Shown piece after piece: positions 4,063-49,561 of a DNA stretch of 64,000 nucleotides. This stretch comes from Escherichia coli (GTDB taxonomy: Bacteria > Pseudomonadota > Gammaproteobacteria > Enterobacterales > Enterobacteriaceae), in the NCBI RefSeq assembly GCF_002854065.1, contig NZ_CP024147.1. The stretch is one strand, 5' to 3'. Numbering within the stretch: the first letter of the stretch is position 1; the number at the start of each line of letters is the position of its first letter. The notes beneath the pieces were generated by a model that made no database searches, had not been told where the DNA came from, and saw nothing but the letters and a program-made list of their open reading frames with translations. The position numbers were made by a program, and so were the translations under genes.

Positions 4063-5199
4063 TTAACGTGCCGGATGATGAACGGCGTTAAAACCCAGTT
4101 TACACAGCAATGATGCCGCACTGGCGTCATCACAAATTACATACAGAGATGACCATTCACGGCGCTCAAGATAGTTTTTGCGCAGTTTATCGAACTCACC
4201 CGGTATCCCGGCGACTTTACGCAGCGGTGCGTCATCGCGGCGCACATCATACACCAAATGCACCAGCCTTTTCAGCGTCGGTTGATCGAGCGGGCCATGC
4301 AGCGTAATGCGACCAAACTCTGGCGCGGGTAGTAATGTATCCAGCGCAACGTGCTGTTCATGCCCAATAAACTTGCTATAGGCTTCAAACACTTGCGTAG
4401 TACCGCGTGCTTTACCTTCCAGGGTATAGCCTGCAATATGCGGCGTGCCGATATCCACTTTTGTCAGCAATTCCACATTAAGTTCCGGTTCGCCTTCCCA
4501 GACATCCAGCACTACGCTTAACTTCTGGCCTTCATTCAGGCAGGTCAGCAACGCAGTATTATCGACGACTGCGCCACGGCAGGCGTTAATCAGAATCGCT
4601 CCCGGCTTCAGGCTACGGATCAGTTTTTCATCCGCCAGATGCAGCGTTTTGTACGGCCCGTCTTTGAAGAGTGGCGTATGGAAAGTCAGAATATCCGCGC
4701 GCTGAACTAACTCATCCAGCGAGCGGAAATCACCCTCATCCCCACGGTCGGCGCGAGGCGGATCGCAAAGTAAGGTTTTAATCCCTAACGCATCCAGTCG
4801 TGCCTGTAAACGCCGACCAACGTTACCAACGCCCACGATCCCCACGGTACGCTCGTGCAGTGAAAATCCATCGCGTTCGGCAAGCATCAGCAGGGAGGAG
4901 AAAACATATTCCACCACCGCAATCGCATTACAGCCAGGTGCAGCGGAAAAACCAATTCCCGCCTGCTTTAACCATGCTTCATCGACATGGTCGGTCCCCG
5001 CAGTGGCAGTGCCAACAAATTTAATGGGTTTTCCTGCCAGCAAAGATTCATTCACTTTCGTGACCGAACGCACCATCAGCGCATCCGCGTCTGCCAGTTG
5101 AGCGACGGGGATTGGACGCCCGGGAACCGCGATCACCTCACCCAAACGGCTAAATAAGTCGCGGGCATAAGGCATATTTTCATCAACAAGGATTTTCAC
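4063..5199 (-). CDS. pdxB: Erythronate-4-phosphate dehydrogenase
   Basis: 378-aa [19 protein letters not shown]..., D-2-hydroxyacid dehydrogenase family, conserved position. Confidence 0.95.
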
Positions 5200-5297: not shown

Positions 5298-7471
<2,174 letters not shown>

Positions 7472-7742: not shown

Positions 7743-8963
7743 TTAATCTTTCAGCTTGCGCATTACCAGCGTGGCGTTGGTGCCGCCGAAGCCGAAGCTG
7801 TTAGACATAACAGTGGTCAGTTCGCGATCGGTCGTTTCGGTCACGATGTTCAGACCCGCAGCCTGCTCGTCCAGCTCTTCAATGTTGATGCTCGGGGCGA
7901 TAAAGCCGTGTTCCAGCATCAGCAGAGAGTAGATAGCTTCCTGTACGCCAGCAGCGCCCAGAGAGTGACCGGTCATGGCTTTGGTTGCAGAAATCGCCGG
8001 GCTCTTATCGCCGAACACTTCACGGATAGCTGCCAGCTCTTTCACGTCGCCAACCGGAGTCGAAGTACCGTGGGAGTTCAGGTAATCGATTGGGGTATCA
8101 ACGCCATGCATCGCCATCTTCATGCAGCGTACTGCGCCTTCGCCAGACGGAGCAACCATGTCTGCGCCATCAGACGTTGCGCCGTAGCCAACGATTTCAG
8201 CATAGATATGAGCACCACGCGCCAGCGCGTGTTCCAGCTCTTCAACCACCACCATACCGCCGCCGCCAGCGATAACGAAACCGTCACGGTGAGCATCGTA
8301 AGTACGGGAGGCTTTTTCCGGGGTGTCGTTGTATTTAGTAGACAGCGCACCCATTGCGTCGAATTCGCAAGCCATTTCCCAGCACAGCTCTTCGCCGCCG
8401 CCAGCAAACACGATGTCCTGTTTGCCCAGTTGGATCTGCTCTACTGCGTTACCGATACAGTGTGCGGAAGTCGCACACGCGGAGCTGATGGAGTAGTTAA
8501 CGCCATGAATTTTAAACGGGGTGGCGAGGCAGGCAGAAACGCCGGATGCCATCGCTTTGGTGACCACATATGGGCCAACCGCTTTCAGGCCGCGCGGACC
8601 GCGCATTGCGTCAGCGCCGAACACCTGGAAACGCGGGGAGCCGCCGCCGGAACCTGCAATCAGGCCAACGCGCGGATTATTCTGGTAAGCTTCCGGGGAG
8701 AGGCCCGCATCAGCGATTGCCTGCTCCATAGAAAGGAATGCATAAATGGATGCGTCGCTCATAAAGCGCACAACTTTGCGGTCAATGAGGCCAGTGGTAT
8801 CCAGTTTTACGTTGCCCCAGACGTGGCTACGCATGCCGGAATCCTTCAGCTCCTGAGAGAAAGTGATCCCTGAACGTCCTTCACGCAGAGATGCCAGGAC
8901 TTCCTGCTGGTTATTACCGATGCTGGAAACAATGCCCAGGCCAGTAATCACTGCACGTTTCAT
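7743..8963 (-). CDS. fabB: 3-oxoacyl-ACP synthase I (KAS I)
   Basis: 406-aa [21 protein letters not shown]... with active-site Cys region SSACATS and HGTSTPVGD. Confidence 0.97.
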
Positions 8964-9055
8964 TCAATACCTCTGTAAGTCGCACATAGAGTAAGTTTCG
9001 AATGCACAATAGCGTACACTTGTACGCCGAACAAGTCCGATCAGCCAATTAATAG

Positions 9056-11128
<2,073 letters not shown>

Positions 11129-38767: not shown

Positions 38768-39247
38768 TCACGAAGATAATGATCGTATGGCTTCCTTAAG
38801 GGCTGGTGAGACACGTTGATTAAGTGCTTCATTAGCCCAGTCGGATTGCACGGGTATTCTACGCAATATCACTGTGTTTAAAGCAGCAAACAAACGATGC
38901 AGTAAATGTATAGAACCGGTCGCGATAGCTGTATCCACCCACTGGTCCGCATAGAGCCATGGGGCTGAAAATAAATCAGCCATCGCCTGAGTAGCAACTT
39001 CAATAGACGCTTTTTCTAGGCAAAGAACATCACCCTGATCGCCAAAATTATGCTCAAAGTAAGGCAATCCTTCTATATTCGTGCGAATTAGAGGAAATGG
39101 GCAGCGCCCAATGCTCAGTAAAATATAGGCGTCTATACGCTGATCATCGTCACCCACCTCTGCTGACGGCAGTTTCGCTAGTTGCCCGAGTATCATCCAA
39201 CTGGTTGATTTAGAAATGACCTTTGGGATTTGATCCTCTAAATTCAC
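38768..39247 (-). CDS. Hypothetical protein (159 aa), downstream partner of the nuclease-NTPase gene
   Basis: ORF begins at a GTG with upstream AAGAG; 70 bp after the stop of the NTPase ORF on the same strand; no recognisable motif. Confidence 0.5.
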   Translation of the reverse strand: MNLEDQIPKVISKSTSWMILGQLAKLPSAEVGDDDQRIDAYILLSIGRCPFPLIRTNIEGLPYFEHNFGDQGDVLCLEKASIEVATQAMADLFSAPWLYADQWVDTAIATGSIHLLHRLFAALNTVILRRIPVQSDWANEALNQRVSPALKEAIRSLSS

Positions 39248-39316
39248 CAGAATACTCTTTGCATCATCCCCGTGTTTAGAAATCCACGCTAATCCATCCT
39301 CAATCTTTAGATTGAC

Positions 39317-41128
39317 TTATTGGTTGTCTGGCATAGCTAAAGTAAACAATCCGTTTTTTATAGGTTCTTTATATGGCTCAATGCTGAGAAGGCCCTGAAT
39401 AATTCCAAAGCTGAAATATCTCTCTTTAGCTGCCATACGGCGTATGGCTTGAGCACCGATCATATCTCCAAGATAAGTGGCGTCTAGCCGTTCGCCAAGC
39501 CAAGCCCCGGCGTCTTGAGGGTCTTGTTCTGCCCGTAAAACCAGTTCATCACAAACAGCATCCGACAGTTCCAGAAGGTAAGCTGCGGGAACTGTCGGCA
39601 CCACAACATCTTCCCATCCTGAAAGGCGAAAAATACGAACTGCCCCCATATGTTTTAACTCATTCACTACACCACGAGCTTCGTCAGAAAGTGCGTCATA
39701 CCGCACGACAAATCCATTCGCTTTAGCAAACATTAATTCTACTGAGTGGGAGTTTGTGTCAGCTAGTGCGCAGCGTGCAAGAACCCGATAATAACGAAGA
39801 AGATCATACTGACTCTCATAGCTCTTTTGCGCAGCATCTATAAGTTCCATACCGGGTGATGGAGGAAGATAGGCGATAAGATCCGTTTTCTGGTATTGAT
39901 GATTGCGCACAATGTCATCATAAATAGTGCGAAGAACCCAAGGCGAGCGGTAGTCATCGGCGTATTCTGCTCCCTGTTGAAAAACTATCCGCTGGTCCGA
40001 GAGAATCTGTTGCGCCAGCTTAAATTCATCTAGGGACATAGGCGATGTTTTAAATACCTTCGACCGGCTACCAATTGCAGACGGAGTTCGTCCGTTTGGA
40101 TTTTTCAGTAACGCGTTGGCATGATAGGTCGTCAGAACAACCACCAGCCTGTTGCCAAAACGTATACCCGCAAGTTCCTCAAGATCAGTAGCCATTTGGG
40201 AGCCTGGTTCAACGTCGTCGATAGCAAGCATAAGCGATGGACCTTCAGTGCAGTTAGACATTCGTCTTAACCAGTTACGTGCATCATTTGAGGTTAAATT
40301 CCATTCAAATTCAGCTGCAAAAAGATTGGCCAGAGCCTGAAATAGTCCTGGTCCGGAACCTCGTAACATCAGGACAGCCAAAAGATCGCTACTTTCCGTT
40401 TTTAGCGAAATTTCACGGAGGCAACTGCTTTTTCCGCTTTGTGCATCACCCTCAATGATAGTGAAAGCTGTACCCATCACAGCAGATTCAATTACAAGAG
40501 ACGTGATTTTGCGAGGAAAAAGTAGGTTGTTGGCAAATGGATGTTCTGAATGCCCAGGCTGATCAGTTATATCAATCAGCAGCCGGGCTGTTTCTTCTCG
40601 CACAGCTGGCACCCAAGCATTAGTTTCTCGCCCCATCAAGGCTTCAATAGCCCAGCGCATGTCAGCCGCCGCCAACTTTGCAGAATTGGCGAGCATCTTG
40701 TTTACCGCTGCCGAGGCATCCTGTCCACCCGACCACTGTTGTCCATTACTTGAGTCATAAACGCGCGTATCTTTACCGTTCGTAACTACAACGAGAGGCG
40801 GACGTGGTGTTAACTGGTTAGCGTAGCTTTAAGCCTGTTCATAATCATCATGGGTCAGTGTCAGGTCTTCACGTTTCAGTTCAATAACCGCAAGTGGTCT
40901 CTCCCGATGAAAGATCAAAACATCCGCTCGCCCGTATTTTTTCCAGTGTGCGGCGCTATCTATTTTGTAAGTTCCATGGCCTAGCCGAACGGTAAAATGG
41001 CGCTGTTCGATAAGATCTTCGCGAGGAATGTTAGGAAATGCTATGTTTAGTGCTGAAGTAAGCCGGCTTTCTAGCTCGGCTTCAGTTCGAACGAGTGGAG
41101 AGCCCGTTTTTGATTGCATACTTTTCAT
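39317..41128 (-). pseudogene. PD-(D/E)xK nuclease-like N-domain fused to P-loop NTPase, interrupted by one in-frame TAA (40829-40831)
   Basis: ORF 40829..41128 (RBS GAGGA; motif D-x-ELK in ADVLIF...AVIELKRED) and ORF 39317..40696 (Walker A GDAQSGKSS, Walker B LMLAIDDVE) share one frame; the 44 codons between them are open and read SYANQLTPRPPLVVVTNGKDTRVYD, continuing the nuclease-domain pattern; no RBS before the internal ATG. Confidence 0.6.
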
Positions 41129-41771
41129 GACAAAGTATCCTCAGATATTAGTCATTGGCTAAGTTTTTATTTCACTTACTACCTTTCCAGATTAATGCGA
41201 AGACGCATAGCATTGGATTAACGGATGTGAAATGGATTATTGACAAGCAAAGTAACTTTTTCCGCATAACTATCAATTGATTAGCTGAAGAAAGGGAATA
41301 TGATTTAGTTCACTCAGGTTTCTCCAGCACGATGTGCAGATGCTAAAGCCACGATTAATTCTAAAGCAGATTAATATAACCCTGAAACAGGCAGAGCAGG
41401 AAACGCCTGTATCGGAAGTATGCCGCATGACCGCCCCCGATAACTCACACCGAATGCCAATAGGAATGTCAGCCCCTCGCTCATAGCAGACCTTCGGGCC
41501 TGGCAGCTTAGTGCCAAGAACACTCCCCAGTGGCCTATCGGCAAGTGTAAGCGTACGAATATCGCCTCCGTGCTACACAGTAGACGACTACATTTTCGAC
41601 GCATGAGCAAATCGTGGCTTTAGTTGTCTAAAACCAGTGCTTCAACACTTTTTTTTCACCAAACAACGCATCGTAGAAGCACTAGTTGGATTCCACAGGC
41701 TTACGTAAACAAATAGCGCTAACGGCTAAGCTGGTCCATTAGACGCTCAATCATCCTCGCAAGAGGTATAG

Positions 41772-42788
41772 TTACTCGATGCCCAGAACAAATGACATTA
41801 ACAAATCTAGCTTTATTTTCATGTCTGCAGTTGCCGAAGCCGCATTAACCTGCGGCAAGGCAAGCCATCTGTTTACGGCATCGGAGTTGAATCTCTGCTG
41901 CCTTAGGAACGAAGATACCGACGTTTCCCAGGAAAAGATTTCACCCCCACAAAGTTCGACGGGCTGCTGAGAGCAGGCTCGCTGAATAGTCATTCCCAAA
42001 CCGACGTAGCGGAGAAGCTCACGTCGCACATTCTCATCTTTTTGCATGACTGGTGCATCCAGTTTCGGTTTCGGTCCAAAGTACACTCCGGTAGTACCTG
42101 GTTGTAATGTCGGGTCACTGGAAAAATAAACCGGAACTCCCATCAATTTAAATGCCGCTGTCAAAATTTCATAACTAATGTCTGATCGACTCCAACGGCC
42201 CATGTGGGGTGGTACTTTTGGCAAACCGACCAGATCATCGCCACGGCTTACAATCGATACCCCCTCAACTGGCACGGATGGTTGCATTCTGAATACAGCG
42301 TCAGAATCGATTTCCCAGCCAGCTTCGCTTAACAATCGCAAAAAATTACCAGCAGCCACGCACGATGATTCACTCCACTCAACACAACCGATGCGCAGCT
42401 TGTCCCGCTGACCGAACTGTCCTGTTCGAAATAATTCGAGGTATCTGTCGCGATTGGAACTATTAACGGCATATGCATCAATCACAGTAGGCGGTACAGG
42501 TTTACTTGCAGATTCAGGATTTTGTTGAAGCAAATCTGGGCTTATGAAAAACACTATAGCGAAGATCGCCACTGCGCCAGATGCTCTTAACCACCCATTA
42601 AATTTTACTTCAAGGAAACCAGGCAGAACTGCACCAATACATCCGGCAGCCAGAGCCAGAACTATTCGGTAAACTATATATTGATAAGGTGTGGGATTGG
42701 GGGTTGTGATAGTAGTAATGAGTATGGCAACTATCGCCACAACCGCAAAACCATACCTAATGAACTTGTCTGTCCTTACACTGCTCAT
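41772..42788 (-). CDS. Hypothetical membrane protein (338 aa, N-terminal transmembrane segments plus soluble domain)
   Basis: Hydrophobic helices FAVVAIVAILITTITT, IVYRIVLALAAGCIGAVLPGF, AVAIFAIVFFISP; no recognisable catalytic motif. Confidence 0.55.
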   Translation of the reverse strand: MSSVRTDKFIRYGFAVVAIVAILITTITTPNPTPYQYIVYRIVLALAAGCIGAVLPGFLEVKFNGWLRASGAVAIFAIVFFISPDLLQQNPESASKPVPPTVIDAYAVNSSNRDRYLELFRTGQFGQRDKLRIGCVEWSESSCVAAGNFLRLLSEAGWEIDSDAVFRMQPSVPVEGVSIVSRGDDLVGLPKVPPHMGRWSRSDISYEILTAAFKLMGVPVYFSSDPTLQPGTTGVYFGPKPKLDAPVMQKDENVRRELLRYVGLGMTIQRACSQQPVELCGGEIFSWETSVSSFLRQQRFNSDAVNRWLALPQVNAASATADMKIKLDLLMSFVLGIE

Positions 42789-43218
42789 TTTAATTTTGAC
42801 ACCTGAATCAAGTCCATAAGTCGAAAATCCCGCATTAAACTGTTCCCCAATGATTAATACAGCTTTATACGCGTAATGAGGCTATTGGCGTTGGTGATGA
42901 GTGTAACTGTCCATTCCTCGCTCAGAGCAACCTTCTGCTCCAAGAGTCAGTCTACAGTGTGCAAAAAACAGACGTTGATCACAATATCGAGTTAATCATT
43001 CGGCCGTTTATCACTCCCATTGAAAAATTTCTCAGTATCCAATATACCAATGTTGAGGGCTTCCCTCTTACATCTCAAAAGGATAACTATCATGGGTCTT
43101 AAACCTGGTCCAAAACCAATTGCTAAATCGACAGGAAAACCAGATCAACGCCGACGAGATAATAAAGATACTCCTGGCAACACTCCGGGACTAAAGCCAA
43201 GTAAGTCCACCGGGAAGT

Positions 43219-43254
43219 AAAAAAATCAGGGTATAAATAAGTTATTTATACCCT
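43219..43254 (-). terminator. Intrinsic terminator of the three-gene helicase cassette
   Basis: Perfect 12-bp stem AGGGTATAAATA / TATTTATACCCT with 3-nt loop, followed on the minus strand by a 7-T run; 16 bp after the helicase stop. Confidence 0.75.
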
Positions 43255-43269
43255 GACTACATATCCAGT

Positions 43270-45468
43270 CTACTGAAGGTGTTTCTGCAGCCAGGTGCAC
43301 GTTCCTTCTATATCATACGCCTGTGCCCCATACCCTTTAGCAAGCAAAGTCTCTGGTAAATACTCGTCATATTTATCCAGATACTTGTCAGGAACAACTG
43401 CAGCAAGCTCAAACTCTGAAGGTAACCCCGACAATAGCATTTTCTTAAGTACACGCTGGACAGAGGCAACGCCTGAGTCCTCTACCTCTATCACACCTGC
43501 AAATGAACTGGCTTTAAAGCCACAACGTATAAGCAGGGACGTAATTGTATTGACAATTTTATCCCCCATCCACGGGATCACGTAGCAGTTCTGACCACTG
43601 GCAATAAAACAGTCATTGTGTAGATTGTAGCGTTGGAAGTTGTCACTTCCTTCCGCAAAGAGGCTTCTGGCTGCGGCATCAGCATAATCGACTCTCTTGT
43701 TGCCTACCGCGATACGGTAATCATTTTCCCTGTAGATAGCGAGCATCTCCTGGCGAACAACATCATGAACAGACATCCCGCTACCACTGAATAGTGGTGG
43801 CTGACCGCCTTTAGTCGCCTCAACATAGATAACCTTTTTTTCAACCTCGATCTCTGTCACTTTCCAGCGCCGTCCGCCGAAGATGATGTGCTGCTCCGGC
43901 AAAAGTGGGGAGTCTACAGGCACTGTGCCAAGAGTTCGGTTTCCCGTTACAATGCGAAACTCCTCAGGTGTATTGAATACGGCATAAAACGTGTAGTGAT
44001 TAGTCAGCTTCTCCCCCTCAGCCCCGACAACTATTTCACCGCTGGCTAGTTGACTGAGCAGGCCACATGTCCCCATATGTTTAAGCAGACTTTTAAAGTC
44101 ATTTATATCCACATTCCGGAACGGACCTGTCTGGCAAAGTTGTGACCAGAGTTGATCGGCACGAACACCTCCCCATTGCGCAGTAATAGCCAGGATCTGG
44201 TGTAGTAGTGTGGAGTAATGTTTCTGCCGGATATCTGCAGGCTCGAACCAGCGCTTAGAGATCATCAACCTGATCATTGCCATCGCCTGAACCAACTGCA
44301 GCCGTAAATGATCCACAATGCTGCTGGTTGCGGTAAGTTCAGGTTCAGTAATTAACATTCTCAGCACCGATGGGGAATCGCGCCGCCCTGAACGTCCCAT
44401 GCGTTGACGCAGACTGGAAACAGAATGCGGAGGTGTCACTTGTATGACAGACTGCACCTTACCAATATCAATACCCAGCTCCAGCGTCATTGTACAAACA
44501 GCGGTTGTGGGCAAATTCCCTTTCTGCAGTCGGGCTTCAAGCGCCTCACGTAACTCCCTGGCAAGGGAGCCATGATGAGGAAAGAATTCATTAGGAACGA
44601 CATTTGCTTCACACATGTCGCTCAGTATTGCCGCTATGCTTTCAGTACGCTTTCGACTGTTAGCAAAGACCAGGTGGGAATCGCCACGACAGAGCCTGAA
44701 AATATCCGCGCAGACGAGCTGTTCAGCAGAGCTCTGGAGCTCTTCCCCTTTTTCGAGCACCCGCTCAAGATAACCTTTAACCTGAACTTGTAGTGTAGCG
44801 GTGCTATTACTGTCTGTTACCGTTTCACAAGGTAATCTCTTATCCGGACGCAATAATTCTGGCACTTTTTCCAGCTCTCCCAGAGTGGCACTCAACGCGA
44901 CACGGGGAACTGGATTTAACTGGCGTCCCAGCACATGGTCAATTCTATTAAGCAGCGAAAGCAGTTGTATACCACGCTCTGAGCCAATAAAAGCGTGGAA
45001 CTCATCAATAACAATGTATGCCACTGAAGAAAACGCCTGTTTGAGCCAACCCAATGAGTTTATGAGCAAAGACTCAAGTGATTCAGGTGTGATAAGTAAG
45101 ATACCTGACGGGCTTGTCCGTGCTTTATTCTTTTTGCTTTGTGGTACATCCCCGTGCCAGGGCGTCACTTGCATTTCCAGGGCTTCCCCCAGGCTCTCAA
45201 GACGACGGTGCTGATCGTTAATCAATGCCTTCAACGGACTGATATAGATAATGCCAAATCCACCAGTGAGATCTGCAATCGCTGAACAGGCAGGAAGAAA
45301 GAAAGCCTCTGTTTTACCCGCAGCTGTACCTGCACTAATTAGTACATCACGATCACGGGCTAAAATTGCCGGAATAGAGCTCTCCTGCAAGGGCCTTAAT
45401 GATGACCAGCCCTGCTTATAAATCCACTTACGGACACGGGGATCGAGACTATTGTAGGCACTGCTCAT
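43270..45468 (-). CDS. Superfamily-2 DExH-box helicase with C-terminal extension; third gene of Shango-like cassette (SngC-like)
   Basis: 732 aa; Q-motif LRPLQ, motif I SAGTAAGKTEAF, motif Ia SPLKAL, motif II VIDEFHAF, motif III SAT, motif VI QRMGRSGRR; start overlaps the upstream stop by 4 bp. Confidence 0.85.
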   Translation of the reverse strand: MSSAYNSLDPRVRKWIYKQGWSSLRPLQESSIPAILARDRDVLISAGTAAGKTEAFFLPACSAIADLTGGFGIIYISPLKALINDQHRRLESLGEALEMQVTPWHGDVPQSKKNKARTSPSGILLITPESLESLLINSLGWLKQAFSSVAYIVIDEFHAFIGSERGIQLLSLLNRIDHVLGRQLNPVPRVALSATLGELEKVPELLRPDKRLPCETVTDSNSTATLQVQVKGYLERVLEKGEELQSSAEQLVCADIFRLCRGDSHLVFANSRKRTESIAAILSDMCEANVVPNEFFPHHGSLARELREALEARLQKGNLPTTAVCTMTLELGIDIGKVQSVIQVTPPHSVSSLRQRMGRSGRRDSPSVLRMLITEPELTATSSIVDHLRLQLVQAMAMIRLMISKRWFEPADIRQKHYSTLLHQILAITAQWGGVRADQLWSQLCQTGPFRNVDINDFKSLLKHMGTCGLLSQLASGEIVVGAEGEKLTNHYTFYAVFNTPEEFRIVTGNRTLGTVPVDSPLLPEQHIIFGGRRWKVTEIEVEKKVIYVEATKGGQPPLFSGSGMSVHDVVRQEMLAIYRENDYRIAVGNKRVDYADAAARSLFAEGSDNFQRYNLHNDCFIASGQNCYVIPWMGDKIVNTITSLLIRCGFKASSFAGVIEVEDSGVASVQRVLKKMLLSGLPSEFELAAVVPDKYLDKYDEYLPETLLAKGYGAQAYDIEGTCTWLQKHLQ

Positions 45469-46781
45469 AGTCTGAAATTCGCCAGGCCATCATCGTCATC
45501 ACTTTCCTCCACAATGGCATCCCCCATATCGCTGGGCTTGTCTTCTTCAATCGCCACCCCCTCAATGAGAGCTTGCCAGTTCATCGTACTGTTTTGTTCC
45601 AGCACAGCCAGCATATCCAGAAAACCTTTTATGGTATTGCGGGGAGTTCGAAAGTAAGCATCTCCGATGGTTTTGCTGCAGTGATGCAGAAACCCGGTCA
45701 GAGCCTCATCTGGCACCAGATAATTTGCGGGATCTCCACCAGCATAAACATGACGAAGATTTTTCAGTAAAATATACAGTTCCTCAGGAGTGAGGCTGGC
45801 AAGATGTAGCGTGGGAGACGAGTAGTCAATCACGCCAGCTTTCTGTGCGAATCGATTTTCTGCCAGACGCGACTGGAGCGCTTCATAGCTGTAGAGCCCC
45901 TTACGTGGATCGAAAAGAAACTCTGGCGTCCCCCCGAGGATAAAACCAATATTTTCGGCGGAGCCTTGCAGGCAGTCATTCAGGATCCGCAAAATTTGTT
46001 CGTAGTTGGCCGTTCTCGCTTGCGTATTATTCAACTTGAAGAGGTTCACCATCTCGTCGAGGCTAACTAAAAGTCCGGCATAGCCTGCCTGACGGACAAA
46101 AAGGCTCATCAACTTCAAAGAGTCATAGAACGAGGCGTCTGAGATAATCGTTCGGACGTCAAGATCATTACGGGCATCAGTTTTTGTGGTGTACTCGCCC
46201 CGCAACCAGCGAATAGCATTGGATTTTAAGGTTTCGTTATCCTGCTCATGCCCGCGCCAGAATGCGTCAATGACCTTCGCAAAGTCATATCCACCCACCA
46301 TATCTGACAAAGCAGCAAGGCGTTTATGAATAACGGATGAGACCTGGGAGCCGTTCGCATCAGCTTCCTTCCTTGCCTCAGTAACAAACCTTTCCACAAC
46401 GCTAAGTAATGCATTGCCATCTGGTTTGTTTCTGGTGGACATATTTTTCATAAGCTCTGAGTAGAGATTACGAGCCTGACCTCCCGATGAGTGAATACGT
46501 CTGTCGGGAGAAAGGTCTGCACTGACCGTGACCAGCTTTTTCTCTAACGCAATAGACCGTACAACACTTAAAAAGAACGTTTTGCCGGAACCATACTCAC
46601 CAATGATAAGTCTGAAGCTTGCCCCGCCATCAGCAATCCGTTCAATATCCTGATGGAGGGCGGTTATCTCATTCACGCGGCCAACCTGGATATGCTGAAT
46701 ACCTATCCTTGGCGTTACTCCCGACTTAAGTGACTGAATAATAGCGTCGCGCTCTTTCACTCTTATACGTGTTACAGACAT
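45465..46781 (-). CDS. P-loop ATPase; second gene of Shango-like cassette (SngB-like)
   Basis: 438 aa; Walker A GEYGSGKTFFL, Walker B LLVSLDEM; start 3 bp after the upstream stop. Confidence 0.85.
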   Translation of the reverse strand: MSVTRIRVKERDAIIQSLKSGVTPRIGIQHIQVGRVNEITALHQDIERIADGGASFRLIIGEYGSGKTFFLSVVRSIALEKKLVTVSADLSPDRRIHSSGGQARNLYSELMKNMSTRNKPDGNALLSVVERFVTEARKEADANGSQVSSVIHKRLAALSDMVGGYDFAKVIDAFWRGHEQDNETLKSNAIRWLRGEYTTKTDARNDLDVRTIISDASFYDSLKLMSLFVRQAGYAGLLVSLDEMVNLFKLNNTQARTANYEQILRILNDCLQGSAENIGFILGGTPEFLFDPRKGLYSYEALQSRLAENRFAQKAGVIDYSSPTLHLASLTPEELYILLKNLRHVYAGGDPANYLVPDEALTGFLHHCSKTIGDAYFRTPRNTIKGFLDMLAVLEQNSTMNWQALIEGVAIEEDKPSDMGDAIVEESDDDDGLANFRL

Positions 46782-46784
46782 TCA

Positions 46785-49094
46785 CTAACCCTCTAATTCT
46801 TTGGCTATTTCCAGGTCAACCCAAATGTGATCATCAGCATCTTCCAGCACTGGTGCATCAACCACCGCATAGGACCAATCGTTAATCACCTCAAGCGCAC
46901 CGCCGAGCATCAGGTTCCAGTTACTACACAACTCTGTCGCCTCTTTTCTGGACCATTGTTCTTTCTCCAGCAACCTGCGATAAAGTTGGCTATGAGCGGA
47001 GTCAAGCCCCCCTTCCCCGGTTAATGAGGCTGGAGCGCTTTCTGGTTGTTCTGGTTCTTCTTCAGTGAAAATCGAGTTCAGTAATTTACGAACATCATCA
47101 GTGGCAGATTCGTGGCGGGCAAGTACATTGGCATCCAGCGTAAACCCTGCCGTCGACTGATTAGCTGGTACAGATGAAACGAGAGCAGTTTCAGTTACGG
47201 AATGCTGATGGATATTGCTTGATACGGATGAGGGATCCAACCCCAGGCTTGTATAAATCTTCTCAAGCTGTTTGATTTCGGCAGGCGTAATTCTGCCGTC
47301 AGAGCAAGCGACACTAACGATAACCTTACCCACAGCTGATTTTTCCGCTGCACCGAGTAACTCAATCCGGCTTTTCATTCCCGTCATATTCGCCGGGGTA
47401 TGAAGCTGCCACGTTAAATATGCGTGCAGAGAGCGCTTTTCATCATCGCTGAAGCTGACATTGTTGTTGATGGCATTCTCAAGCACTTTCTGTTCGGCTT
47501 GATCGAAAGAATTGTCAATCAAGGCGACTACCGAACCTAATCGGAGCGTCAATACAGCTGTGATAAATTCAGGAGAAGGAGAGAAGCGGCCACTTTCACC
47601 AGCAGGGAATAAAACAAGAACACCATCGACATCTGCTTTTACGTGGTGGTAATAGGGGTCAGGAGCCAGGCAGTACCCCATTTTCTGTGCAAAGGCCTGC
47701 ATCAAGTCGGCCTCTTTTTTGTTGATCTTTGCCGGACAGGTAGCATTCATGTGTGACCAGAAGTCAGCAACTGAAACTACTCCCCCCTTACTGAGGATCG
47801 CGTCATCAGCCCAGCGTTTGAATGCACTTAATATTTTATCTGCGCTTTCGTTAACGATTTCTGAAGGCAGCAACAAAATTGCAACGGTATCATTTGCTGA
47901 AGTGCCTTTTCTACCAAGGTAACGACTGTAAGCATCCAGTTCATCTGTGCATATATCAGCAAGAGTCATAAGCTTCTGAACAGGGCCTTTCAATGCACTT
48001 GGATCAGGCAAGTCAGGAACAGGAAGCCGAATACCTCTCAAACTGGGACTTGCAGGCGTGTAATCTAAACGCAGACGCGCTTTATTCGGCTTCACTACCA
48101 TCCCTTCACCGTATTTAAGGGTGTAACGCCGTTTAAATAGTGCAGCAAATTCTTTCGCACAGCGGCGGGCGGGGGTTCGTAATGAGTATTCAGTATGGTT
48201 TGTCACCCACGTCAGAGCCAGATCCGCTGGAACCGGGGCTCCTGCATCAACTGTCTTTGCCAGGATTAACCTGAACTGCATGCTATTGCTGAACTCTGAA
48301 TCATCGCTGAGAGCTGCTGCAAGATTTTCGTTCGGACGAAGAATGGACATCGCTTCAAGTAACTGGGACGAGTAGTTCCGGAATGATCTGTTTTCATTGA
48401 AAACAGATCTGAGACGGCAGATCTCTTTGAAAAGAGAATAGAACTCATCGTCAGATATATTGCTGTCCCTGCTGTCAACAAGCGCCCGTCTTTCCAGACC
48501 ATACAGATAAATAAAAACGTAACCAATTGGGCAAGAAGTGTCACATCTGTCGCTGGTAAGCCAACTCAGGTACGCGCCACGTGCTTCAGGTGAAAGTGAG
48601 GAATAACTGGGCCAATACCCTAATGAACTATCTTCGTAGATGTAAGATGTGGGGTATATCTTGAGCGTGTCGTCAATTAGCGATGCCTCGCTACTATCAT
48701 CATAATAACCGCCTGAGTTATGCCCGACAGGGTTCATTCGCTGTCCAAGATAGAAGTAGCCGCCGGTAATCTCTACCCCACCGACTGTGATCACCTCCCC
48801 CGGTAAAATCCAGCGAGCCAAAGCACCGGTAGTTTTTGAGAAATTCTGGCGTTGAGTGGCTGTTATACTGTATTCGGCATTCCGCCCGCCACTTAGTGTA
48901 AACGTAGCCAGATTGTCATCTTCGCTGTCCTCGTTGTGCATTACAGACTGATTTTTTTTGTTATTAGCAAGCCATTCTTTAGGTGGTGCTTTCACAGGAG
49001 CGGAAGTATAAGAGCCCGCGGACTTAGTTTTCTTCTTTTTGAAAAAAAGAATATAAATCAAATAAATCGCTACTATAAATATCCATAACTCCAT
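46785..49094 (-). CDS. Membrane-anchored TerB-N/TerB-C-type protein; first gene of Shango-like cassette (SngA-like)
   Basis: 769 aa; N-terminal TM helix MELWIFIVAIYLIYILFF then basic linker KKKKTK; size, position and architecture match the TerB-domain component of the TerB-ATPase-helicase triad (assignment by recognition, not by HMM). Confidence 0.7.
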   Translation of the reverse strand: MELWIFIVAIYLIYILFFKKKKTKSAGSYTSAPVKAPPKEWLANNKKNQSVMHNEDSEDDNLATFTLSGGRNAEYSITATQRQNFSKTTGALARWILPGEVITVGGVEITGGYFYLGQRMNPVGHNSGGYYDDSSEASLIDDTLKIYPTSYIYEDSSLGYWPSYSSLSPEARGAYLSWLTSDRCDTSCPIGYVFIYLYGLERRALVDSRDSNISDDEFYSLFKEICRLRSVFNENRSFRNYSSQLLEAMSILRPNENLAAALSDDSEFSNSMQFRLILAKTVDAGAPVPADLALTWVTNHTEYSLRTPARRCAKEFAALFKRRYTLKYGEGMVVKPNKARLRLDYTPASPSLRGIRLPVPDLPDPSALKGPVQKLMTLADICTDELDAYSRYLGRKGTSANDTVAILLLPSEIVNESADKILSAFKRWADDAILSKGGVVSVADFWSHMNATCPAKINKKEADLMQAFAQKMGYCLAPDPYYHHVKADVDGVLVLFPAGESGRFSPSPEFITAVLTLRLGSVVALIDNSFDQAEQKVLENAINNNVSFSDDEKRSLHAYLTWQLHTPANMTGMKSRIELLGAAEKSAVGKVIVSVACSDGRITPAEIKQLEKIYTSLGLDPSSVSSNIHQHSVTETALVSSVPANQSTAGFTLDANVLARHESATDDVRKLLNSIFTEEEPEQPESAPASLTGEGGLDSAHSQLYRRLLEKEQWSRKEATELCSNWNLMLGGALEVINDWSYAVVDAPVLEDADDHIWVDLEIAKELEG

Positions 49095-49166
49095 GAGGCA
49101 ATAACCTTAAAAATAGCTTTTCACGAACACCGAAAGGATGACGATGGGAAGTGGATTAATCTTAAA

Positions 49167-49194
49167 ATAATACTTCTAAATTACAAAGGTTAAA
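49167..49194 (-). promoter_or_regulatory. Putative sigma70 promoter for the three-gene cassette
   Basis: Minus-strand TTTAAC (-35) - 16 nt - TATTAT (-10), about 75 bp upstream of the first start codon. Confidence 0.25.
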
Positions 49195-49561
49195 AGCAAA
49201 TCACAACCTTCCCGAACCTCCGCTTTTCGCTTGCTACGGTCCCTGCCGAGCATGAATCTCGTCTATGCCCAAAAGCGGACATTGATAATTCAGAAACCAT
49301 GGCAGAAGTGTGGTATCAGCCCCTCACCTGATGCCTGCCAGCATCGCACCTCGCTTCATGTCTAACCTCTCTGTTAGCCCGGCAGGGTCAATGGCTCTGT
49401 TGACAATGGTGCTACTTTCCAATACGTTAAGCACAAGGTTAGCGCGACCCGGCAGCTCACGGCCAAAGCGGAATGCAGCGCAGACTTATCAAATCTTTTT
49501 TGGTTAAGTGTCTTTGATTCTTATGATTCGTGAGCACATAGGACAGATAAGAGACTTAAAC

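Follow-up and report, generated by a model that had tools for sequence, protein, structure and literature searches.

A 42-codon gene convergent with the Shango cassette of Escherichia coli is a candidate member of a peptide family carried by mobile elements across phyla

Is a 42-codon open reading frame (ORF) facing the 3′ end of an Escherichia coli helicase cassette a gene, and if it is, does it belong to the cassette or to something larger? The frame lies on the plus strand at positions 43092–43220 of a 64,000-nucleotide (nt) stretch of E. coli contig NZ_CP024147.1 (assembly GCF_002854065.1), called the window from here on. A first, sequence-only reading had noticed it and left the choice between a real small protein, an antisense regulatory element and chance. 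The anatomy described there agrees with ours in every detail. ATG at 43092 and TAA at 43218–43220 enclose 42 sense codons, the Shine-Dalgarno (SD) sequence AAGGA occupies 43079–43083 with an 8-nt spacer to the ATG, and the translation, MGLKPGPKPIAKSTGKPDQRRRDNKDTPGNTPGLKPSKSTGK, contains the internal repeat GLKP(GPKPIA)KSTGK / GLKPSKSTGK. The stop codon opens the A7 run of what had been called the cassette terminator, a 16-bp hairpin at 43224–43258. Judged alone the frame is unremarkable and no more than chance expectation, the mechanical ORF list containing 106 frames of at least 30 residues that overlap positions 38000–48000. It is conservation that lifts it above chance.

Between the window and E. 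coli ESY001 the ORF carries 10 synonymous and no non-synonymous differences. Codon statistics over the first 36 codons of 76 distinct nucleotide versions from many phyla gave entropies of 0.22, 0.16 and 1.33 bits at codon positions 1, 2 and 3, and a pairwise proportion of synonymous differences of 0.72 (saturated) against 0.07 for non-synonymous ones. Twenty of the 42 residues are invariant in a diverse 18-sequence alignment, and the family consensus reads M-x-[LI]-KPGPKPIAKSTGKPDQRRRDNK-x-TPGNTP-x-LKPSKS.. at a length of 41–46 residues. With saturated synonymous sites and a near-invariant protein, selection seems to act on the peptide and not on DNA identity. The signals for translation are kept as well, which was the check on ORF and ribosome-binding site that the sequence-only reading had proposed: the start codon is ATG in 82/82 distinct loci, an SD-like motif stands 5–10 nt before it in 77 of the 82 (7–8 nt in 67), and the ORF is 41–46 codons long in 77. 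Both Bacteroidota loci are among the exceptions lacking an SD, as expected for a phylum that does without SD pairing. Third-position GC content of the gene correlates with that of its surroundings (r = 0.51), a sign that the gene has long resided in different hosts.

Could an overlapping signal in RNA or DNA account for this pattern? A search of the peptide locus against Rfam returned no family, and synonymous variation shows no local suppression apart from the first ~9 codons, so that an overlapping signal is not a likely cause of the conservation. The antisense option is rejected on the same grounds, conservation being at the protein and not the nucleotide level and the neighbouring gene being convergent in only ~60% of loci. 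Chance is rejected by protein-level conservation across hundreds of genomes, in which the frame is kept from Met to stop with a non-synonymous rate far below the synonymous one. What is left of the three options is the small protein. Sequence comparison shows that 43092–43220 has the marks of a true gene whose encoded protein is kept by strong purifying selection, and we regard it as almost certainly translated.

Competing annotations make the start site a question of its own. RefSeq proteins of 107 residues (WP_001564033.1, WP_015953064.1), with a GTG start and AAGGAG ahead of it, are annotated over the peptide DNA in ST131-, CFT073- and S88-type E. coli (L002, strain ESY001, 8939–9262; L003, strain S88, 8939–9262), where they close an ibrA-ibrB-perC operon convergent with Shango, the anti-phage system described below. 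Taken at face value, these entries would turn the window ORF into the dead 3′ remnant of a 107-residue gene, truncated at 42958, where homology to the ibrAB island ends, and frameshifted by the one-base difference between the window and B2-type E. coli in the run before the SD. We find this hardly credible. The 107-residue protein, used as query, matched ~100 proteins (from E. coli, Raoultella, Klebsiella, Salmonella, Vibrio, Pseudomonas, Xanthomonas and others), and in these the similarity is limited to the last 42 residues, starting exactly at the Met. The extensions that gene callers place upstream of this Met are unrelated between genera; the upstream 65 residues are not conserved beyond Escherichia and close relatives, vary non-synonymously, and are cut off in many species and loci by an in-frame stop 1–4 codons before the Met. 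The 5′ region of the window has the length seen in Citrobacter, Buttiauxella and Dryocola, whereas it is B2-type E. coli that carry a 1-nt deletion in the 5′ untranslated region (UTR; TCTC-GAAGGA), opening the upstream frame. Position 42958 is moreover the common left end of a module found in many genera, and RefSeq itself annotates plasmid versions at 42–43 residues. The idea of a truncated or frameshifted stump was dropped on these four grounds: Met-bounded conservation, upstream stops, the B2 deletion and the common module end.

The 107-residue hypothetical protein thus appears to be an over-extension of the 42-codon gene. The 66-codon frame starting at TTG (43020–43220), to which the mechanical ORF list had extended the peptide frame, and the 47-codon frame starting at GTG (42959–43102), both of them calls of some pipelines, look like over-extensions too, as do the versions of 61–153 residues from other pipelines. 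If so, current annotations, in which the gene is absent or 61–107 residues long, are wrong.

Some copies are broken rather than mis-called. Those of O26/O157-type E. coli (H160–H163) end at nt 116, a Klebsiella copy (P0089) is interrupted after residue 33, and P0014, P0078, P0053 and P0056 complete the list of disrupted versions. Two E. coli/Klebsiella versions continue into a sequence reading '...EGANK...', which we take to be an IS5-type end, and in several variants the stop is read through after a slip in the TAAAAAAA run. In a metagenomic protein of 87 residues (P0121) the entire peptide is duplicated in tandem, head to tail, within one ORF.

How far does the family reach? In a genome scan restricted to one genome per species, at least 577 loci encode the peptide, and our locus comparisons draw on the best 80 of these. 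At 83–100% amino-acid identity, the 80 cover Enterobacterales, Vibrionaceae, Aeromonas, Shewanella, Pseudomonadales and Xanthomonadales among the gammaproteobacteria, together with Burkholderiales, Rhizobiales, Rhodobacterales, Sphingomonas, Caulobacterales, Leptospira and Bacteroidota. Relatives in Neisseria, Pasteurellaceae and Arcobacteraceae are found in UniRef, where the exact window peptide is an 'Uncharacterized protein' present on at least 1000 contigs. Among complete E. coli genomes 881 of 5426 (16%) carry the peptide, and many E. coli chromosomes match the region around the gene at 100% identity. The copy in E. coli AMSCJX02 lies in an island adjoining a tRNA-Arg gene and a tyrosine integrase; RefSeq annotates nothing there between a 338-residue hypothetical gene and the helicase gene.

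Plasmids are frequent carriers. The peptide is encoded on 1424 of 72,556 plasmid records (~2%); 842 of these carriers are conjugative and 368 mobilizable. Klebsiella contributes 1009 and Salmonella 146, and Agrobacterium, Rhizobium, Xanthomonas, Vibrio and Comamonas are also represented. The gene is almost never annotated on them. Phage records containing it number 1 of 50,697. These searches place the peptide, as far as homology can tell, in a large family carried by plasmids that are conjugative or mobilizable, by integrative conjugative elements and by genomic islands, its hosts including Gamma-, Beta- and Alphaproteobacteria, Campylobacterota, Bacteroidota and Leptospira. The sequence-only reading was right about a small protein and had missed its membership in this very large cross-phylum family, which would be among the most conserved nameless parts of the bacterial mobile gene pool and one that most annotation pipelines skip.

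Nor do family databases have a name for it. No family in Pfam, PADLOC or NCBIfam matches the peptide, PHROGs returned only phrog_6555 (E = 0.05–0.1), no chain among PDB sequences matches, and full-text searching found no paper on the family in the library covered; large small-ORF catalogues may list it. We therefore file the family as apparently new and uncharacterised, its sequences being already in databases as 'hypothetical' or 'uncharacterized'. All 241 of 241 profile matches, from 1.84 billion representatives, are short and free of domain fusions, the longer ones being read-throughs or mis-called starts. One apparent fusion, with ribosomal protein S1, was discarded: the two ~600-residue S1 proteins (P0291, P0303) in the 90% cluster of a Pseudomonas peptide do not contain the peptide and reflect a clustering artefact.

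A divergent paralogue, MGIKPGPKPIAESTGKEDKRRRVTPENKPKHPGLKEHDHKKGE (WP_004218042.1), occurs at 6001–6132 of L093, from the Klebsiella IncF plasmid pIT-06C07, and shares only the N-terminal half; its neighbours are an ISNCY element and the heat-tolerance genes htpX-psiE-clpK. On many Klebsiella plasmids the peptide is matched twice, perhaps by this paralogue plus a Shango-linked copy.

Does so small a gene come with its own expression signals? Upstream of it we infer a promoter of sigma-70 type at 43020–43048 on the plus strand, read by eye as −35 TTGAAA (43020–43025), a 17-nt spacer and −10 TATACC (43043–43048). A TTGAAA or TTGATA box stands at equal distance in most gammaproteobacterial loci and on plasmid pSH12_5. 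Next comes a 5′-UTR stem-loop, GAGGG-CTT-CCCTC (43055–43067, plus strand; core GAGG...CCTC), probably at or near the mRNA 5′ end. Single-sequence folding puts a hairpin at this place in most gamma-type loci, and RNAalifold on 30 loci keeps the four core pairs in 26–30 of 30, two pairs showing compensatory changes. At the other end, a hairpin directly 3′ of the stop codon is found in every clade. The one in the window (43224–43258) is shared between the convergent genes and has its T-run on the minus strand, where it is the intrinsic terminator of sngC; the plus strand has no T-run.

A complete unit is seen on pSH12_5, a 5.6-kb mobilizable Klebsiella plasmid with a RelE/ParE module and no Shango: TTGATA-17-TATATC, GAGGGCTTTCCTC, AAGGA, 42 codons, GCCCTCCGGGGC and then a T-run. 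RefSeq annotates its peptide as the 42-residue WP_000523570.1. Considered as autonomous units, the loci give a clear ribosome-binding site, a full terminator on pSH12_5 and, for the window promoter, only a −35-like box found by eye. Conserved DNA extends from about −50 to +200 around the ATG in Burkholderiales/beta-type loci and from about −12 to +160 in enteric loci lacking Shango, and the unit of conservation would be, on this comparison, the peptide gene itself. A leader peptide or attenuator was also considered and set aside, the hairpin being followed by a convergent gene here and in ~60% of loci and the peptide being constrained along its whole length.

What, then, is the relation of the gene to its neighbour? 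The sequence-only reading had the convergent arrangement with a helicase cassette right and had missed what the cassette is. PADLOC and Pfam identify 43270–49094 on the minus strand as a complete Shango anti-phage system, SngABC: the helicase gene sngC at 43270–45468 (PADLOC SngC, E = 7e-277; Pfam DEAD and Helicase_C), sngB, for a BrxC/BrxD-type ATPase, at 45465–46781 (PADLOC SngB, E = 1e-187; Pfam BrxC_BrxD), and sngA at 46785–49094 (PADLOC SngA, E = 6.5e-103; Pfam TerB_N, TerB and TerB_C). The peptide gene ends 50 nt from the sngC stop, the terminator hairpin being common to both.

Around the pair we could delimit a module. Its left end (42958–43019, plus strand) is where homology to other Enterobacterales starts, ~133 nt before the ATG, as given by the ESY001/S88 alignment and by BLAST edges at 42950–42980 in L002, L003, L010, L012–15, L024/25 and L091, each of which has unrelated sequence to the left. 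The right end, together with the sngA upstream region, covers 49095–49206 on the minus strand and ends in ...GGTTAAAAGCAAATCACAA|, ~110 nt before sngA (~49206); nine other loci lose homology there at 49195–49232, mostly at 49203–49206, and differ in sequence beyond. Both ends are identical in at least six genomic or plasmid contexts across enteric genera, and no terminal inverted or direct repeats were seen by eye at the module ends. In Enterobacterales the peptide gene and sngABC thus seem to move as one ~6.25-kb block between islands and plasmids; a block with sngABC was found within Enterobacterales only. Cloned 'native' enterobacterial Shango loci with flanks would accordingly tend to include the peptide gene.

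Such linkage could mean that this Shango lineage has a dedicated fourth component in the peptide, for example a regulator, inhibitor or trigger-mimic acting on SngA, SngB or SngC, with all other copies secondary or exapted. In E. coli, sequences matching the sngC 3′ end start without exception at the peptide ATG, ten further enteric genera (Serratia, Citrobacter, Buttiauxella, Kluyvera, Klebsiella, Pantoea, Dryocola, Ewingella, Pectobacterium and Photorhabdus) have the pair, as do Klebsiella IncF and Salmonella pESI-like plasmids, the left (about −133) and right ends of the module stay fixed in differing flanks, and Yersinia keeps a remnant of the gene with a 5′ deletion. The association nevertheless breaks in both directions. 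Rahnella has Shango without the peptide gene, and the Shango loci on Polaromonas, Ruegeria and Pseudosulfitobacter plasmids (~42% SngC identity) have no peptide copy within 6 kb, so the gene does not adjoin sngC wherever Shango occurs. Conversely, ~60 of the 80 species loci have neighbours other than Shango, including the copies of Pseudomonas, Vibrio, Xanthomonas, Rhizobiales, Burkholderiales and Bacteroidota, and the 5.6-kb plasmid pSH12_5 carries the peptide without Shango. In S88 and CFT073 Shango is deleted and the peptide gene intact; the sequence-only reading had named a lost or interrupted ORF in related islands as the sign against a gene, and these islands show the opposite. PADLOC, too, defines Shango by three proteins. 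We therefore consider a fourth Shango component quite unlikely, and think it probable that the peptide is an autonomous accessory gene rather than a dedicated subunit. Shango is its nearest physical relation, by the shared sngC terminator hairpin and co-mobilisation throughout Enterobacterales, but with most copies elsewhere the peptide looks like a travelling companion and not a demonstrated component.

Other neighbours gave no substitute partner. All-against-all clustering of the 3088 flanking ORFs of the 80 loci found no neighbour common to the whole family, the only recurrent ones being Shango in enterics and lineage-specific backbones. Defence genes are nonetheless well represented: besides Shango we found Dsr1, an MkoC-like helicase, GajB/OLD-like (Gabija-like) genes, SIR2, DarT-HD and, in a Xanthomonas locus, BrxR with an E2/E1/JAB (Bil-like) operon. 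Conjugation and plasmid functions (TrbL, ArdC, pRiA4 ORF3, DUF4400, DUF3871), recombinases and toxin-antitoxin genes also occur next to it, as do ordinary genes such as pyruvate carboxylase, imuAB-dnaE2, TonB receptors and transporters. The peptide does not serve as a marker of island ends or recombinases, a candidate role that we rejected: 12 of the 80 loci have a tyrosine-integrase-like ORF at a distance of up to 10 kb, 9 of the 60 loci scanned have a tRNA or tmRNA gene close by, and 4 of the 80 have a serine recombinase inside the same 10-kb range. Among the 80, Aquimarina alone has its serine recombinase directly before the peptide gene; outside the set, a Xanthomonas oryzae plasmid has one placed likewise. 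In these two loci (L089, 5931–6608; L099, pXOO43, 4219–4854) the recombinase gene ends 150–230 nt upstream, on the same strand.

The variety on both sides suggests another role, at the level of DNA: a short block serving as a homologous-recombination anchor or junction for cargo swaps, with the frame incidental or weakly functional. Different cargo blocks often lie on the two sides of the gene, an upstream MkoC-like gene is combined with differing downstream cargo in L017, L019, L020 and L022, breakpoints fall in or beside the ORF (nt 116 in O26/O157 copies, residue 33 in P0089, the 5′ deletion in Yersinia), and L032 has a degenerate second copy 3 kb away. An anchor of this kind, however, would hardly leave synonymous sites saturated around a nearly invariant protein, nor maintain start codon, SD and length, and between-clade nucleotide identity is too low for homologous exchange. 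Recombination at the gene is better taken as a consequence of its ubiquity, and we give the anchor little credence beside a gene selected for its product.

Near some loci a further block was observed. In Vibrio, Photobacterium, Shewanella, Aliidiomarina and one Dickeya (L027, L028, L029, L032–L036, L040, L049, L057, L069) the gene lies in a sharp-edged block of ~590 bp, from −401 to +185 relative to the ATG, together with a divergent ORF of ~61 codons (MDRITSGPRRLSVEEIQELRRDM...) that is preceded by an SD of its own and matches nothing in Pfam. In several of these loci guaA is 3–5 kb away or TrbL-type transfer genes are near, and no terminal inverted repeats were seen by eye at the block edges. 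In L032 a second, internally deleted block of this type lies 3 kb upstream, at about −2999 to −2836 relative to the ATG, with a duplicated 84-residue ORF, and may be the mark of cassette duplication or exchange.

What might the product do? The peptide has a mass of 4.4 kDa, an isoelectric point of 10.8, a net charge of about +7.5 and a grand average of hydropathy (GRAVY) of −1.64. It contains 8 Lys, 3 Arg, 7 Pro and 6 Gly, no aromatic residue, no Cys and four hydrophobic residues of 42. AlphaFold2 predicts no fold: the mean predicted local distance difference test score is 68.6, and the sole helix spans five residues over QRRRD. We propose that this unstructured peptide acts in trans, lying extended along one specific, universally conserved host macromolecule. 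Such binding is suggested by the combination of no fold, position-by-position conservation across phyla and no co-encoded partner, and by the charge of the peptide the target would most likely be polyanionic and contain nucleic acid, that is, the ribosome or other RNA, or DNA and the proteins that handle it. Either the non-phage element or the host under phage infection would benefit. Our confidence in extended docking on a conserved host target falls somewhat short of even, and any single target is a long shot, RNA or the ribosome being a low-probability guess and DNA a slightly lower one. Specific docking does seem more likely than a non-specific histone-like coating or a co-encoded partner, histone-like and other non-specific polycations conserving composition and not sequence.

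Several known small proteins share parts of this profile. Sra/bS22, bL34 and bL36 are small, basic, largely unstructured ribosome-associated proteins, and the peptide resembles them in size, positive charge, lack of an independent fold and position-wise conservation across phyla. It differs in living on mobile elements instead of the core genome and in having no PDB or Pfam match; hhalign of the peptide against an Sra sequence entered by hand gave a probability of 0.06. Arginine-rich-motif RNA-binding peptides such as lambda N, and DNA-binding segments of the S/T-P-X-X or H1-tail kind, offer a second comparison: the peptide has a basic DQRRRDNK within a Pro/Gly/Lys-rich, turn-forming sequence, and its own 5′-UTR stem-loop. 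It is, however, dominated by Lys and not by Arg, there is no detectable similarity to lambda N (its sequence likewise entered by hand), and where histone-like tails conserve composition the peptide conserves exact residues. BrxR and CapW, regulators associated with defence islands, resemble the peptide in that a single gene turns up next to many unrelated cassettes and is not tied to one system; they are folded winged helix-turn-helix–WYL transcription factors of ~300 residues, whereas the peptide has 42 residues and no fold and also stands beside non-defence genes. Morons, autonomous promoter-gene-terminator units between prophage operons, are likewise compact and self-contained between unrelated blocks of mobile DNA. 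Each moron usually has a narrow distribution, in contrast to one conserved family that crosses phyla and is near-absent from phages.

Composition and context also bear on the alternative of a small toxin or an addiction factor that is type I-like and controlled through the 5′ hairpin or an antisense RNA, or else of a stand-alone anti-phage peptide. Carriage on plasmids, down to the 5.6-kb one with a RelE/ParE module, frequent defence neighbours (Shango, Dsr1, MkoC-like, Gabija-like, DarT-HD, the Bil-like operon), near-absence from phages and a structured 5′ UTR are all compatible with this. The type I toxins Hok, Ldr and Ibs, though, have a membrane-spanning hydrophobic segment, for which four hydrophobic residues leave no room; an antisense overlap would suppress synonymous variation locally, and none is seen past the first ~9 codons. 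There is no conserved partner gene and no PADLOC match to the peptide, and many neighbours are ordinary metabolic or transport genes. We regard the toxin or anti-phage alternative as improbable. The same low standing applies to the bolder form in which the peptide is itself an immune factor, either the smallest known stand-alone defence gene or a general potentiator or sensor common to many cassettes. It would then occupy a universally conserved host machine that phages need, and if true this would account at once for the near-invariance, the residence in defence-rich cargo and the near-absence from 50,697 phage genomes.

Taken as a whole, an autonomous, selected gene of a mobile-element family whose product docks on a conserved host target is the explanation we favour, with moderate confidence. 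Several points weigh against it. The linkage to Shango in Enterobacterales is tight and long-lived, and a functional tie could be under-weighted here. A consensus scan of the window made no call at the putative promoter, whose −10 box has no final T, and the covariation in the 5′ hairpin is modest to weak. Both the status as a gene and the mechanism are drawn from comparison, the mechanism from composition, the conservation pattern and the lack of a conserved partner. A peptide useful to elements at large would be expected in phages too, and yet one record in 50,697 has it, which a host target leaves unexplained. Strict conservation in an unstructured, partnerless peptide implies a precise and important contact with something that every bacterium has, and the target, once found, could reveal a new way for mobile elements to manipulate or protect their hosts.

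Two further frames to the left of the module were observed in the window. At 38768–41128 on the minus strand lies the gene of a 786-residue 'HsdR N-terminal domain-containing protein', intact in AMSCJX02 and differing here by five single-nucleotide polymorphisms, of which those at 39319 and 40831 create stops and make it a pseudogene in the window. Directly adjoining the module is a 338-residue ORF (41772–42788, minus strand) with no Pfam or PADLOC match, just upstream of which a promoter-like site is present at 42816–42787.

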